Shown: positions 1-48,600 of the stretch, piece after piece
How the letters are laid out: each line of letters starts with the position of its first letter
Numbering within the stretch: position 1 is the first letter of the stretch
NCBI RefSeq assembly: GCF_000027125.1
Contig: NC_017626.1
Origin: Escherichia coli 042
GTDB lineage: Bacteria; Pseudomonadota; Gammaproteobacteria; Enterobacterales; Enterobacteriaceae
Length of the DNA stretch: 64,000 nucleotides
Direction: 5' to 3' (one strand)
The notes under the pieces: generated by a model
What the model saw: only the letters and a program-made list of their open reading frames with translations
Told to the model about the DNA's origin: nothing
The model's database searches: none
Position numbers and translations under genes: made by a program

Positions 1-790
<790 letters not shown>

Positions 791-881
791 ACAACGCCGA
801 AGATGTTTTGGCGGATGAGAGAAGATTTTCAGCCTGATACAGATTAAATCAGAACGCAGAAGCGGTCTGATAAACAGAATT

Positions 882-1001
882 TGCCTGGCGGCCTTAGCGC
901 GGTGGTCCCACCTGACCCCATGCCGAACTCAGAAGTGAAACGCCGTAGCGCCGATGGTAGTGTGGGGTCTCCCCATGCGAGAGTAGGGAACTGCCAGGCA
1001 T
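882..1001 (+). rRNA. rrf: 5S rRNA
   Basis: 120-nt match to E. coli 5S (TGCCTGGCGGCC...GGAACTGCCAGGCAT). Confidence 0.93.
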
Positions 1002-9948: not shown

Positions 9949-10095
9949 GATTCGCCTGAACATGCCCTTTTTTCGTAAGTAAGCAACATAAGCTGTCACG
10001 TTTTGTGATGGCTATTAGAAATTCCTATGCAACAACTGAAAAAAAATTACAAAAAGTGCTTTCTGAACTGAACAAAAAAGAGTAAAGTTAGTCGC

Positions 10096-10204
10096 GTAGG
10101 GTACAGAGGTAAGATGTTCTATCTTTCAGACCTTTTACTTCACGTAATCGGATTTGGCTGAATATTTTAGCCGCCCCAGTCAGTAATGACTGGGGCGTTT
10201 TTTA
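10096..10204 (+). ncRNA. spf: Spot 42 sRNA
   Basis: Recognised GTAGGGTACAGAGGTAAGATGTTCTATCTTTCAGACC... ending in hairpin CCCCAGTCAGTAATGACTGGGG plus T-run. Confidence 0.85.
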
Positions 10205-11232: not shown

Positions 11233-11477
11233 ATAGAGCGAGGACGCTAACAGGAACAATGACTCAGGATGAGGGTCAGGAGCGCCAGGAGGCGAAGACA
11301 GAGGATTGTCAGGAAGACAAACGTCCGGAGACGTAATTAAACGGAAATGGAATCAACACGGATTGTTCCGGCTAATGGAAAAACAGGGTGTGTTGGCGGC
11401 CTGCAAGGATTGTAAGACCCGTTAAGGGTTATGAGTCAGGAAAAAAGGCGACAGAGTAATCTGTCGCCTTTTTTCTT
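11233..11477 (+). ncRNA. csrC: CsrC sRNA (CsrA-sequestering)
   Basis: About 245 nt dense in GGA/AGGA motifs (AGGACGC, CAGGATGA, CAGGAGCG, CAGGAAGA...), ending in hairpin GGCGACAGAGTAATCTGTCGCC plus T-run. Confidence 0.8.
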
Positions 11478-11543
11478 TGCTTGCTTTCTGTTAGATTCCG
11501 CCGCAAATCTATACTGAATAAAACGGCTAAAAGACGAACCATT

Positions 11544-15447: not shown

Positions 15448-16497
15448 TTATTTCCTGATAGGCAGGTAAACCGAGAACTCGGTATGACCTGGCCAACTGG
15501 TAAATTCAATTTTGCCTGAATGCTGATCAATCAAATTACGGGCGATGGATAAGCCAAGCCCGGTGCCACCTTCGCGGCCGCTGACCATCGGGTAAAACAG
15601 CGTATCCTGCAAATGAGGCGGAATACCTGGCCCGTTATCTTCCACATCAATTCGCGCCGCCAGCCGATAACGCTCGCCGTGTAAGGTCAGTTGGAAAGCT
15701 GTGCGGGTACGCAGAATGATTTCACCACCCTCTGGCCCCAGCGCCTGTAGCGCATTGCGCACAATATTCAGGAGCACTTGCTCAATTTGATCCGGGTCGT
15801 GCGCCAGTTCCGGCAGGCTGGGGTCGTAATCACGAATCAACCGCACGTTGTCCGGCAGTTCCATCGACACCAGCGTCACCACGCGTTCAGCCACTTTATG
15901 AATACTTTCGGTAACGCGCGTACCGGGCAGTTGCGGTCCCAACAGACGGTCGACCAGATTTCGCAGCCGGTCCGCCTGTTCGATAATAACTTTGGTATAT
16001 TCGAGTAGTGACGGGTCAGGTAATGCTTTGCTGAGCAGCTGCGCCGCGCCACGTAAACCGCCAAGCGGATTTTTAATCTCATGTGCCAGGCCGCGCACTA
16101 AATCACGGGCAGCAACCTGCTGGGCGTGCTGTAGCTGTTCCTGACTTAAGCGGCGCTGGTTATCCATCGGTGCCATCTCCAGCAGGATCATGCCGTCCGG
16201 CATACGCTGGGCCGTCACAGAAAGGATATGCGAGCGCCCGTCGATGACCAGCGTCACTTCGTTATCGGTAAAACCTTGCCCCGCCTCCAGACTTTCTTGC
16301 ATCAGCTCGATATTTAATGAGAAGTAGCTCAACAGTTCCGGTAACGGTGTACCAAACAATTTGCGGGAGCTTTGGGCGAGCAGTTGTTGCGCGGCGGGGT
16401 TGGCGTAATGGATCGCCAGGTTGTCATCGATTAACAAAATACTGTTAATCAGCGAGTTGAGGATCTGCCCAGCATCGGGCTGCGTGCCTGTTGCCAT
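15448..16497 (-). CDS. glnL: Nitrogen regulation sensor kinase NtrB
   Basis: 349-aa ORF; H-box HEIKNPL, ATP-binding G-boxes. Confidence 0.93.
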
Positions 16498-16670
16498 AAA
16501 GCAGTCTCCTGAACAGGTTGCACCATTTTAGTGCATTATAGCTTTTTACGGATAAAAAGCGCGAAGCATCAGAGAATTGACGGAGAAAAAAGCCCATGCA
16601 GAGATGGGCTGAAAGTTTCCACGGCAACTAAATCCCGGCGTTGTTGCGCCGGGTAGTACAACTTCAACTA

Positions 16671-18080
16671 TTAGACGCTGTAGTACAGCTCAAACTCTAC
16701 CGGATGCGGAGTCATACGCACGCGGTCATCTTCTTCGCGACGCAGAGCGATGTACGCATCGATCGCTTCATCAGTGAACACGCCACCGGCTTTCAGGAAC
16801 TCGCGGTCCAGATCCAGTTCGTTCAGTGCTTCTTCCAGAGAGCCTGCAACTTGTGGGATCTCTTTCGCTTCTTCTGGCGGCAGGTCATACAGGTTTTTGT
16901 CCATGGCTTCGCCCGGATGGATCTTGTTCTTGATACCATCAAGACCGGCCATCAGCAGGGCAGCAAAGCACAGGTACGGGTTAGCCGCCGGATCCGGGAA
17001 ACGTACTTCGATACGACGTGCTTTCGGAGAAGAAACCACCGGAATACGGATAGACGCAGAACGGTTGCGTGCAGAGTAAGCCAGCATTACCGGTGCTTCG
17101 TAGCCCGGGACCAGACGCTTATAAGAGTTGGTGGTCGGGTTTGCCAGGGCGTTAATCGCTTTAGCGTGTTTGATTACGCCGCCAATGTAGTACAGCGCCT
17201 GCTCAGACAGACCTGCGTATTTGTCGCCTGCGAACAGGTTAACGCCGTTTTTAGACAGAGACATGTGGCAGTGCATACCGGAGCCGTTATCACCGAACAT
17301 CGGTTTTGGCATAAAGGTCGCGGTTTTACCGAAGCGGTGCGCTACGTTGTGCACAACATATTTGTAGATCTGAATTTCGTCAGCTTTTTTGGTCATGGTA
17401 TTGAAGCGGGTAGCCACTTCGTTCTGACCAGCAGTCGCTACTTCGTGGTGATGGGCTTCAACCACCAGACCCATCTGTTCCATCACCAGACACATTTCAG
17501 AACGAATATCCTGAGCAGAGTCTACCGGCGGAACCGGGAAGTAACCGCCTTTCACTGCCGGACGGTGACCTTTGTTACCACCTTCGTATTGGGTGGAGGA
17601 GTTCCATGCGCCTTCGATATCGTCGATAGCAACGTGGGAACCGGAGATAGAAGATCCGAAACGGATGTCATCGAACAGGAAGAATTCAGGTTCTGGCCCG
17701 AACAGTACGGTGTCGGCAATGCCAGTGGAACGCAGGTAATCTTCGGCGCGCTTCGCAATAGAGCGCGGGTCACGGTCATAGCCTTGCAGGGTGCCAGGTT
17801 CAAGGATGTCGCAACGGATAATCAGGGTAGAATCGGCGAAGAACGGGTCAATCACTGCGGTGGACGCGTCTGGCATCAGCACCATGTCGGATTCGTTAAT
17901 GCCTTTCCAGCCGCCAATCGAGGAGCCGTCAAACATTTTGCCTTCTTCGAAGAATTCAGCATTCACCTGATGAGCAGGGATAGTGACGTGCTGTTCTTTA
18001 CCTTTGGTATCGGTGAAGCGCAAATCAACAAACTTCACTTCGTGCTCGTTCAGCATCGTCAGTACGTGTTCAGCGGACAT
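16671..18080 (-). CDS. glnA: Glutamine synthetase
   Basis: 469-aa [31 protein letters not shown]...; adenylylation-site region NPYL. Confidence 0.97.
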
Positions 18081-18159: not shown

Positions 18160-18185
18160 ATAAAGCGAAATCTGTGCCAACTTTT
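18160..18185 (-). promoter_or_regulatory. glnAp2 sigma54 promoter
   Basis: Minus-strand TTGGCACAGATTTCGCT matches TGGCAC-N5-TTGC(A/T) -24/-12 consensus. Confidence 0.8.
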
Positions 18186-18249: not shown

Positions 18250-18305
18250 TGTTGCACCAATATAGTGCTTCAATGGAAACATTAAGCACCATATTGGTGC
18301 AATGA
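18250..18305 (-). promoter_or_regulatory. NtrC enhancer binding sites upstream of glnA
   Basis: Two TGCACCA-N-GGTGCA-like palindromes (TGCACCAATATAGTGC, GCACCATATTGGTGCA). Confidence 0.7.
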
Positions 18306-18452
18306 CCTTTGGATAACCCTTTTTATGCTCCGTGAAAGCGATCACAAAGGGACTCTGCAATACTTGTTTGCGGAGGATGTTTGTGATCCTGTTTTGTAGT
18401 GCGATTAATCCGTGTACAATAACGCGCTATTTCTAATGCCTGAGGCAAAGTT

Positions 18453-45672: not shown

Positions 45673-48600
45673 TTACACCTTTTCCACATTCACAAGGAAG
45701 GACTTAAACTCCGGCGTCTGCGTGTTCGCATCACCAACGAAAGGCGTTAACGTATTGGCAATAAAGCCTTTTTTAGCTACGCCTTCATAGCCCCAGTGAA
45801 TCGGAATACCGATGGTATCGATATCTTTGCCGTTCGCTTTCAGCGTGCGAATACGTTTGGTCACCACCGCTTTGGCTTTGATATAGCCACGGTTGGAGGA
45901 GACTTTCACGGTATCGCCCTGGGCAATGCCAAGTTTATTCGCCAGCGACTCCCCGATTTCCACAAACTGCTCTGGTTGCAAAATCGCGTTCAACAGCGCG
46001 TGTTTGGTCCAGTAGTGGAAGTGCTCGGTCAGACGATAGGTGGTTCCGACATACGGGAACTTATCGGCTTTACCCAACGCTTCGGCGTCGTCTTTAAAGA
46101 TACGCGCAGCCGGGTTCGAGATAACGTTTGGATGCAGCGGGTTAGTTCCCAGCGGCGTTTCAAACGGCTCGTAGTGTTCCGGGAACGGACCTTCCGCCAT
46201 CTTATCAAGGGCAAACAGACGTCCCATGCCTTCCTGCTGCATGATAAACGGCCCTACGCCGCTGCCCGGAGGCGCTGCGCTGTAGTCCGGAATATCCCAG
46301 CCGGTCCACTTAGTGCCGTCCCATTTCAGCAACTGACGCTTCGGATCCCACGGGTTACCCTGCGGATCTGCGGAGGCGCGGTTATACAGGATGCGGCGAT
46401 TAAGCGGCCATGCCCATGCCCAGCCCAGCGTGTTACCGAGGCCAGACGGATCGGCGTTATCACGGCGTGCCATCTGGTTACCTTCTGGCGTCCAGCTACC
46501 GGCGAAAATCCAGCAGCCACAGGAGGTGGTACCGTCATCGCGCAGTTGGGCGAACGAGCTAAGTTGTTGGCCTTTCTTGACGATAACCGCACCGGTTGCC
46601 GGATCGGTAATATCGGCCAGCGCCTTACCGTTGCTCTCCATCGCTACTTCTTCCGACTTCGGCTCATGCGGGATAGCGTAGTTCCAGGTCATGTTCAGCA
46701 CCTGGTCCGGGTTCGCGCCACCCTGTTCGGCATACATCTTGCGCAAGCGCAGGAAGATACCGGAGAGGATCTCGCCATCAGTCAGCGCAATCCCCGGGGC
46801 GTCCGCACCTTTCCAGTGCCACTGCAACCAGCGACCGGAGTTAACGATTGAACCGTTCTCTTCCGCGAAGCAGGTCGATGGCAGACGGAACACTTCGGTC
46901 TGGATCTTCGACGAGTCAACTTCGTTCAGCTCACCGTGGTTCTGCCAGAAGTTAGAGGTTTCAGTGTTCAGCGGGTCGATGGTGACGAGGAACTTCAGTT
47001 TCGACAGACAACCGATCACTTTGTTTTTGTTCGGGAATGAGGCAACAGGGTTAAAGCCCTGGCAGATATAGCCATTGACCTTGCCTTCTTTCATCATCTC
47101 GAAGTATTGCAGGACGTCGTAGCCTTTATCCCACTTCGGCAACCAGTCAAAGCCCCAGCTATTTTCCGCCGTCGCTTTATCACCAAAGAAGGCCTTCATC
47201 ATAGAGACGAAGAATTTCGGGTAGTTGCCCCAGTAGTTTACCTGGCCTTCCAGCAGCGGTTTTGGCGTGTTGGCGGTAAGGTAGGTTTGCAGATCGGTCT
47301 GCTTCTCGCTCGGCAGCGTCATGTAACCCGGCAGGCTCTGCGACAGCAGCCCCAGGTCCGTCAGCCCCTGAATATTGGAGTGACCGCGCAGGGCGTTAAC
47401 GCCGCCGCCTGCCATCCCCATATTGCCGAGCAGCAGCTGGATCATCGCCATCGTACGAATGTTTTGCGCACCAACAGAGTGTTGCGTCCAGCCGAGGGCA
47501 TACAGGAACGAGGCAGTTTTATCGTGAGCACTGGTTTCGGCGATGTATTCGCAGACTTTCAGGAACGCGTCTTTTGGCGTACCACAGATGTTTTCAACCA
47601 CATCTGGCGTGTAGCGGGAAACGTGCTGTTTCAGCAAGTTCCACACGCAGCGCGGATGTTGCAGCGTGGTATCGCGTTTGGCGAAGCCGTTTTCGTCCAG
47701 TTCGTAAGTCCAGGAGGATTTATCGTACTTGCGTTTTTCCGCGTCATAGCCGGTGAACAGGCCATCTTCAAAGCCGTAATCCTCACGCACGATCAGGCTG
47801 GCGTTGGTATAGGCTTCGGTGTATTCGCGGTTGAATTTTTCATTGTTCAGCAGGTACAGCAATACGCCTGACAGGAAAGCAATGTCAGTACCGGAACGAA
47901 TAGGGGCATAGTAGTCAGCCACCGCCGCCGTACGCGTAAAGCGAGGATCGATCACAATCAGCTTCGCGCCATTGTGAATTTTGGCTTCCATCGCCCAGCG
48001 GAATCCGACCGGGTGAGCTTCAGCGGCGTTACCGCCCATCACCACGACGAGGTTGGCGTTCTTGATGTCGACCCAGTGGTTGGTCATCGCACCGCGACCA
48101 AATGTTGGAGCAAGACTTGCTACCGTTGGTCCGTGTCAGACACGCGCCTGGTTGTCGACCGCGAGCATACCCAGCGCGCGGGAGAATTTTTGCGTTAAAT
48201 AGCCGGTTTCGTTACTCGACGCGGAAGCACACAGCATCCCGGTGGAGAGCCAGCGGTTAACGGTCACGCCTTCGGCGTTTTGCGCAATGTAGTTAGCATC
48301 GCGGTCTTCTTTCATCAGTTTGGCGATGCGATCAAACGCCTCTTCCCAACTGATTTGCTGCCATTTATCAGAACCTGGCGCACGGTATTCCGGAAACTTC
48401 AGACGGCTTTCGGAGTGGATGAAATCCACCAGGCCAGCGCCTTTCGGACAAAGTGCACCGCGGTTGACCGGGTGATCCGGATCGCCTTCGATATGGAAGA
48501 TAGATGCTTTGGCGTTTTTTGCTCCGTCACCGAGGCTGTACATCAACAGCCCACAGCCTACGGAACAATAGGTGCAGGTATTACGGGTTTCGCGGGTGCG

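Follow-up and report, generated by a model that had tools for sequence, protein, structure and literature searches.

A GlnZ small RNA of the O157 type and the NtrC operator of the glnL promoter in the glnA-glnL spacer of Escherichia coli

The spacer studied here lies between glnA and glnL on the minus strand of a 64,000-nt stretch of Escherichia coli DNA (hereafter the window). The glnA coding sequence (469 aa; glutamate--ammonia ligase) occupies positions 16671..18080 and ends with the TAA stop codon at 16673..16671, while glnL (ntrB; 349 aa) occupies 15448..16497, with its ATG at 16497..16495 preceded by the Shine-Dalgarno sequence AGGAG at 16510..16506. Both genes were taken from the open reading frame list and from the RefSeq annotation of identical E. 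coli DNA. The 173 nt between them, read along the minus strand from the end of glnA, comprise a 5' hairpin, a single-stranded stretch (AUUUAG, UUGCCGUGGAAA, CUUUC), a terminator hairpin and six U residues, followed after 45 nt by TATAAT, the dyad TGCACTAAAATGGTGCA and the AGGAG motif. The complete 85-nt glnA 3'UTR, from the first base past the stop codon (16670) to the sixth U of the terminator tail (16586), coincides with the sRNA GlnZ of the O157 type or Class I, also named EsrF, for which the glnA transcript is the parental mRNA. Other known RNAs are found in the window at 1..999 (the end of the 23S rRNA and the 5S rRNA), 10086..10204 (Spot 42), 11233..11486 (CsrC), 42954..42996 (ES036) and 48083..48141 (a SECIS element, minus strand), a set that fits the rrnA-polA-glnALG region of the E. 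coli chromosome.

The Rho-independent terminator (16586..16610, minus strand) consists of the stem AGCCCAT/ATGGGCT, the loop CUCUGC and a U6 tail, and constitutes the 3' end and presumably the Hfq-binding module of the sRNA. The first-pass annotation of this DNA had noted a terminator hairpin downstream of glnA, and the sequence it gave, AGCCCATCTCTGCATGGGCT, is present exactly at 16610..16591 of the minus strand, followed by TTTTT; the U-run (16591..16586) numbers six if the last base of the stem is counted. A second hairpin, CCCGGCG-CAACAA-CGCCGGG, lies upstream at 16634..16653 of the minus strand (sRNA nt 18-37) and was recovered, with its seven GC pairs, in the scan for terminator-like structures. 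That scan, which covered both strands of 16300..16900, returned three terminator-like sites where 0.5 would be expected, the two minus-strand hairpins among them. A 93-nt stretch folds at -28.7 kcal/mol (z = -2.29; 2 of 200 shuffled sequences folded equally well), and the 5' hairpin appears in both the MFE and the centroid structures. In the alignment of the E. coli alleles discussed below the terminator is identical in the O157, O111 and K-12 forms, whereas the 5' hairpin is specific to the O157- and O111-type alleles and missing from that of K-12.

Between the two hairpins lies the sequence UUGCCGUGGAAA (16616..16627, minus strand; sRNA nt 44-55), which in the 5' to 3' direction is the one named as the conserved GlnZ seed (PMC9731577). 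It occurs exactly and only once in the window, with zero occurrences expected by chance, at 43 nt from the stop codon and with a linker of 6 nt to the terminator. The initial feature list was correct in its terminator and its palindrome, and overlooked the seed at 16627..16616 and the 5' hairpin at 16653..16634. All 221 aligned bases of the glnA-glnL spacer region are identical to the E. coli O157:H7 allele. With 16670 numbered as base 1, position 41 is a U (U41) and the sixth U falls on base 85. The earlier suggestion that this glnA 3'UTR gives rise to GlnZ is therefore borne out by the O157:H7 identity, the defining seed and the common terminator. An alignment to published GlnZ had been proposed as a check, with lack of similarity to count against the idea; once run, it revealed similarity over the whole length for the O157 type and, against K-12 GlnZ, in the seed and terminator only, because the K-12 allele carries a REP-containing insertion. 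Judged by its sequence, the 3'UTR is the already known GlnZ/EsrF RNA in its short, 85-nt O157-type form.

The RNA encoded by this allele has been characterized by three groups. Jia et al. (2021), who named it EsrF, determined a length of 85 nt by RACE at both ends in strain EDL933 and by Northern blot, with the 5' end at the T following the stop codon, and found that it is lost in an hfq mutant, i.e. that Hfq is needed (PMC8092317). Miyakoshi et al. (2022) distinguished three types of E. coli glnA 3'UTR, those of K-12 (197 nt), O157 (85 nt) and O111 (230 nt), detected the O157 RNA and processed species and their induction on glutamine, and showed that O157-type GlnZ swapped into K-12 represses sucA and that U41 matters for aceE (PMC9731577). 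Walling et al. (2022) assigned the allele to Class I, reported induction of the RNA by nitrogen deprivation in EDL933, and demonstrated that Class I GlnZ represses glnP, sucA and aceE by way of its seed, with a compensatory mutant in the case of glnP (bioRxiv 10.1101/2022.04.01.486790). The public annotation is sparser: the GlnZ family is absent from Rfam 15, a search of which returned only a sub-threshold Ysr49 match and chance matches, and the RefSeq records that carry this allele have no feature annotated under the 85-nt RNA.

A 401-nt query across the spacer matched 5,425 of 5,426 complete E. coli genomes, and the matches fall into three length classes. With diagnostic probes, the short junction of the O157-type allele found in the window was assigned to 2,829 of the 5,426 genomes (about 52%), the K-12-specific junction to 1,571 (29%) and the long O111-type insertion to 993 (18%); together the probes account for 5,393 of the 5,425 matched genomes, leaving 32 without any probe match. 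Two of the matches lie in records that are designated plasmids. Pathogens are not the only carriers of the short allele, which is also present in Nissle 1917. Relative to published O157-type GlnZ (Class I, EsrF), the RNA of the window has the same 85 nt, the same seed at nt 44-55, the same U41 and terminator and the same position after the glnA stop codon; there is no detectable difference and the allele is the same. GlnZ of the K-12 type (Class III, 194-197 nt) has in common with it the locus, the seed with its UUUAG prefix, the terminator, the downstream glnLp and, according to the papers, the targets (PMC9731577; bioRxiv 10.1101/2022.04.01.486790). It differs in that the seed lies 8 nt past the stop codon, in about 110-112 extra nucleotides, REP-containing, between seed and terminator, and in lacking both the 5' hairpin and the motif GGGAUUUAG considered below. 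The O111 type (230 nt; strain L725) retains the O157-type backbone with its seed and terminator and is distinguished by 145 extra nucleotides between 5' hairpin and seed and by one C fewer in the seed-terminator linker. This extra stretch (L002:470-570 in strain L725) is present as a single copy in each of the 993 carriers and hence does not behave as a multicopy repeat within E. coli.

Two further ideas about the alleles were rejected. An origin of the K-12 allele by duplication of the seed-terminator module found no support, a second seed copy being undetectable (794 of 1000 shuffles scored as well). The K-12 sequence (L001:431-490) does contain a hairpin, GCCUGUC-UCU-GGCAGGC, directly after the seed and spaced like the terminator of the short allele; its likeness to the terminator is marginal (52 of 1000 shuffles as good). 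An apparent fourth allele in E. coli AMSHJX01 (NZ_CP030939.1) proved to be a rearranged and frameshift-rich locus that probably reflects a poor assembly: upstream of the terminator, glnA is replaced by fragments of a frameshifted clsB and of ybhQ, and glnL is frameshifted as well.

Beyond E. coli, a pattern consisting of the seed, a short gap, a GCCC...GGGC stem and a T-run was searched in one genome per species and returned at least 120 loci, which, going by their record titles, are all from Enterobacterales apart from one oddly named record. Among the matches listed, 117 of 117 loci with an intact upstream flank have the C-terminus of GlnA before the module and on its strand (three others being cut at a sequence edge), and GlnL follows the module in 113 of 113 loci with an intact downstream flank (seven others being cut). 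For the 117 species among these matches in which it is measurable, the distance from stop codon to seed lies between 8 and 320 nt, compared with 43 nt in the window, while the distance from terminator to glnL clusters at 80-92 nt (about 89 nt in the window). As both the seed and the outer stem are fixed by the search pattern, their invariance is no evidence of conservation. The pattern left room for variation in the inner stem, the U6 tail and the CUUU-type linker, yet these are nearly constant among the matches listed, with TTTTTT as the tail in all 121 sequences compared. The terminator of E. coli has a 7-bp stem with the loop CUCUGC (16598..16603); in most other genera the stem is 8 bp long and is capped by a tetraloop of the UUCG or UCCG type, e.g. 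AGCCCAUC-UUCG-GAUGGGCU. The oddly named record, L083, is titled Martelella alba BGMRC 2031, an alphaproteobacterial genus name, and contains a typical enterobacterial glnA-GlnZ-glnL locus very like those of Acerihabitans (L008) and of L103, so that either the name or the assembly looks misassigned.

The sub-threshold Rfam match concerns an orthologue filed under another name. Family RF02766, Ysr49 (Yersinia sRNA 49), covers the entire glnA 3'UTR of Yersinia and has the same seed-linker-terminator end, whereas its length is 124 nt and its 5' portion is unrelated to the RNA of the window. The window scores 34.1 bits (E = 8.8e-05) against this model, short of the gathering score of 95 bits, and is therefore not a formal member of RF02766. 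In Yersinia similis (L060:5303-5426) a Ysr49 match of 151 bits begins at the first base past the glnA stop (TAC AGC GTT TAA), and its 3' end is formed by the GlnZ seed-terminator module; the one biological paper found to mention Ysr49 does not name GlnZ. More distant counterparts are SroC (from gltI), CpxQ (cpxP) and SdhX (sucD), 3'UTR-derived Hfq sRNAs that are released by RNase E and act in the pathway of the encoded protein (PMC9731577); there too the mRNA terminator doubles as the 3' end of the sRNA, while loci, seeds and targets differ.

Downstream of the sRNA, the dyad TGCACTAAAATGGTGCA (TGCAC-N7-GTGCA) at 16519..16535 corresponds to the NtrC operator over the -10 box and start region of glnLp. 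The palindrome had been read from the plus strand as TGCACCATTTTAGTGCA, which is exact at 16519..16535, and was interpreted as an NtrC site in front of glnL, a reading upheld by the uniqueness of the dyad, its conservation together with the -10 box and the published repression of glnLp by NtrC (PMC9731577). It is the sole exact match to TGCAC-N7-GTGCA in the 64 kb, with 0.08 expected, and the only two one-mismatch matches in the window are the glnA enhancer sites. Its placement had to be corrected: rather than within 16560..16670, the palindrome lies 25 nt beyond that interval and 50 nt past the U-run, so the RNA and the glnL promoter do not overlap as had been supposed. The dyad instead overlaps TATAAT (16535..16540, minus strand; read from the sequence), the -10 box of the sigma-70 promoter glnLp. 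Box and dyad have one T in common, the first of the dyad, and the box stands 21 nt before the ribosome-binding region of glnL. Our sigma-70 promoter scan of 16300..16900 reported no site, there being no recognisable -35 hexamer at a spacing of 16-18 nt; glnLp was missed for want of an acceptable -35, but as its existence is known from experiment, a weak -35 is no argument against it. Among the matches listed, the exact dyad was found in 80 of 116 testable species loci, and most of the sequences printed for the remaining 36 have, in the corresponding position, a variant with one mismatch. The hexamer that ends on the first T of the dyad reads TATAAT in 40, TATACT in 22, TACAAT in 5 and TAAAAT in 5 of these 80 exact-dyad species. 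According to Ueno-Nishio (1984), as cited in PMC9731577, glnLp is an NtrC-repressed sigma-70 promoter located downstream of a terminator of moderate strength, and the citing passage speaks of two sigma-70 promoters under NtrC repression. The glnL promoter and its operator, described in 1984, are textbook knowledge.

The elements expected to drive the parental transcript are likewise in place upstream of glnA. The sequence contains a sigma-54 promoter, TGGCACAGATTTCGCT, at 18164..18179 of the minus strand, and two NtrC enhancer palindromes, TGCACCAATATGGTGCT and AGCACTATATTGGTGCA (minus strand), within 18253..18301. We identify the element at 18179..18164 as glnAp2 on the basis of what is established about the control region of glnA in E. 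coli, together with PMC9731577. Across the whole window, matches to the sigma-54 and NtrC consensus sequences with mismatches allowed total no more than chance, and only their locations are informative. For the identical allele, induction of GlnZ by nitrogen limitation has been published, with one contrary report (PMC8092317). The divergent glnA/typA control region also contains a match to the Rfam sRNA ES222 (133 bits; 18264..18371, plus strand), on the strand opposite glnA and overlapping the NtrC palindromes at 18253..18301.

For the K-12 and Salmonella alleles, RNase E has been shown to free GlnZ from its mRNA (PMC9731577), and the same enzyme would presumably release the RNA of the O157-type allele. 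Motifs that fit the RNase E consensus RN↓WUU (arrow, cut) occur at sRNA nt 37/38 and 38/39 (GGA↓UU and GA↓UUU), and others lie at nt 56/57, where cleavage would leave the RNA inactive, and 24 nt into the coding sequence. Cleavage at nt 37/38 or 38/39 would yield an RNA of 47-48 nt with UUUAG, seed and terminator retained, in analogy to the Salmonella GlnZ2 of about 50 nt. The mean predicted probability that the seed is unpaired is 0.40 for a 115-nt precursor, 0.61 for the 85-nt RNA and 0.70 for a 47-nt form; this rise would fit the idea that release helps, the differences being small and purely predicted. Within glnA, the Ser468 codon (16677..16679) is AGC in 111 of 111 species compared; the preceding TAC is nearly fixed and the neighbouring codons vary freely. 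The invariant AGC may be part of a conserved upstream RNase E site, which is mentioned in PMC9731577, or may reflect codon bias.

Pairing with the published targets was predicted against the K-12 leader sequences of sucA, glnP and aceE, with only sRNA nt 37-62 allowed to pair and 300 shuffled controls for each comparison. Prediction with the full-length RNAs was discarded: it gave end-to-end duplexes that were no better than shuffles and are meaningless because intramolecular structure is ignored. For sucA, a duplex of 10 bp (UUGCCGUGGA / UCCACGGCGA) forms 25 nt upstream of the ATG at -23.0 kcal/mol, with 7 of 300 shuffles as good. For aceE, 13 contiguous base pairs that include the UUUAG before the seed form 89 nt upstream of the ATG at -20.8 kcal/mol (6 of 300 as good). 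For glnP, 10 contiguous base pairs (GUUGCCGUGG / CCACGGUAAC) form just upstream of the Shine-Dalgarno sequence, 10 nt upstream of the ATG, at -18.8 kcal/mol; this energy is no better than that of the shuffled controls (51 of 300 as good), and the site coincides with its placement in the papers. The seed is thus complementary to all three leaders at the published kind of position. The sucA site, the one target site checked beyond K-12, is 100% identical in the O157:H7 genome NZ_AP018488.1, which also carries the short allele.

A different account of the same RNA accompanies the name EsrF. There the 85-nt species is an independent primary transcript whose promoter lies within the terminal part of glnA; it is repressed by NtrC and builds up when ammonium is high, and its chief mode of action is to pair, through GGGAUUUAG, with the flhB 5'UTR, which relieves Rho termination and thereby raises motility and virulence of EHEC. 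In support of it, 5' RACE placed the start of the RNA at the T immediately following the stop codon, the RNA resisted TEX, its level was unchanged in a glnA-promoter mutant, it was expressed from a promoter-less plasmid and induced by high ammonium, and both EMSA with compensatory flhB mutants and a colonisation defect were reported (PMC8092317). The reported pairing motif, GGGAUUUAG, is indeed present in the window at 16628..16636 of the minus strand (sRNA nt 35-43), in the allele-specific 5' part that is missing from the K-12 allele, and it is the same segment that holds the GGA↓UU and GA↓UUU sites. However, two later studies of the same O157 RNA and strain observed induction by nitrogen limitation, and both note the contradiction explicitly (PMC9731577; bioRxiv 10.1101/2022.04.01.486790). 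The DNA gives this promoter little room: over the final 90 nt of glnA no sigma-70-like pair of hexamers exceeds 6 of 12 matches, none is placed for a start at 16670, and the standard promoter scan is empty across 16300..16900. This check is purely sequence-based, and a non-canonical start is possible. Nor do the codons betray an overlapping signal, the synonymous-codon entropy over the last 20 glnA codons (0.52-0.64) lying within that of the preceding 100 (0.30-0.66; 111 species); the sole exception to ordinary synonymous variation is the invariant AGC serine, two codons before the stop. In the predicted MFE fold of the 85-nt RNA, moreover, six of the nine motif bases (GGGAUU) are paired, the three G as part of the 5' hairpin and AUU within the extension of that hairpin. 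The sequence therefore leans towards processing over an own promoter, a matter contested in the literature, as is the activation of flhB, and we regard the account as a whole as improbable. The flhB motif has no counterpart in the K-12 allele and is disrupted by the O111 insertion; as it lies in the allele-specific 5' portion, regulation of flhB, if real, would be allele-specific.

That the region is only the glnA terminator with an mRNA-stabilising 3' hairpin, and its RNA a decay product devoid of any trans role, could draw on the terminator common to all alleles and on the slight reduction of GlnA upon terminator deletion (PMC9731577), from which a cis role does follow, but it is scarcely credible given a 12-nt single-stranded seed that stays invariant while insertions rebuild the surrounding 3'UTR in three E. 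coli alleles, a stop-to-seed distance that drifts over 8-320 nt in 117 species among the matches listed, and the published seed-dependent repression, with compensatory mutations, by this very allele (PMC9731577; bioRxiv 10.1101/2022.04.01.486790).

We conclude that the region very probably encodes O157-type GlnZ followed by the NtrC-repressed sigma-70 promoter of glnLG. Under nitrogen scarcity, the sigma-54 promoter glnAp2 (18179..18164) would be activated by phosphorylated NtrC sitting on its sites at 18253..18301, and the intrinsic terminator at 16610..16586 would stop most glnA transcripts. An RNase E cut around the stop codon would free the 85-nt RNA (16670..16586), and a further cut at GGGA↓UUU would probably generate a form of about 47 nt. 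With its terminator and U-tail bound by Hfq, the RNA would pair through the single-stranded seed UUGCCGUGGAAA with the leaders of sucA, glnP and aceE and repress them, which would divert 2-oxoglutarate out of the TCA cycle and into making glutamate and glutamine and limit the import of glutamine. NtrC on the dyad 16535..16519 would at the same time cover the -10 region of glnLp, such that basal glnLG transcription would be autoregulated. The positions, the identity to a characterized allele, the conservation and the pairing potential were all obtained here from sequence comparison, and for the identical sequence the size and ends of the RNA, its dependence on Hfq, its induction at low nitrogen and its seed-dependent repression of targets with compensatory mutants have been published (PMC8092317; PMC9731577; bioRxiv 10.1101/2022.04.01.486790). 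Nothing in the sequence contradicts the GlnZ explanation.

As GlnZ, the locus couples nitrogen assimilation to carbon flux: one mRNA gives rise both to glutamine synthetase and to a regulatory RNA by which 2-oxoglutarate dehydrogenase, pyruvate dehydrogenase and the import of glutamine are lowered. For this very sequence all of it is already in print, so that nothing new about the biology comes from the window, and the value of the finding is one of annotation: the RefSeq feature is missing, Rfam has no GlnZ family, and Ysr49, the name under which Rfam lists the Yersinia orthologue, is unrelated. A more speculative thought, which we hold to be unlikely, is that carriers of the O157-type allele could have extra targets (flhB, motility) by way of the hairpin at 16653..16634 and GGGAUUUAG at 16636..16628, and that the three-allele polymorphism is functionally meaningful; if true, one nitrogen signal would be wired to different outputs in different lineages of E. 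coli.
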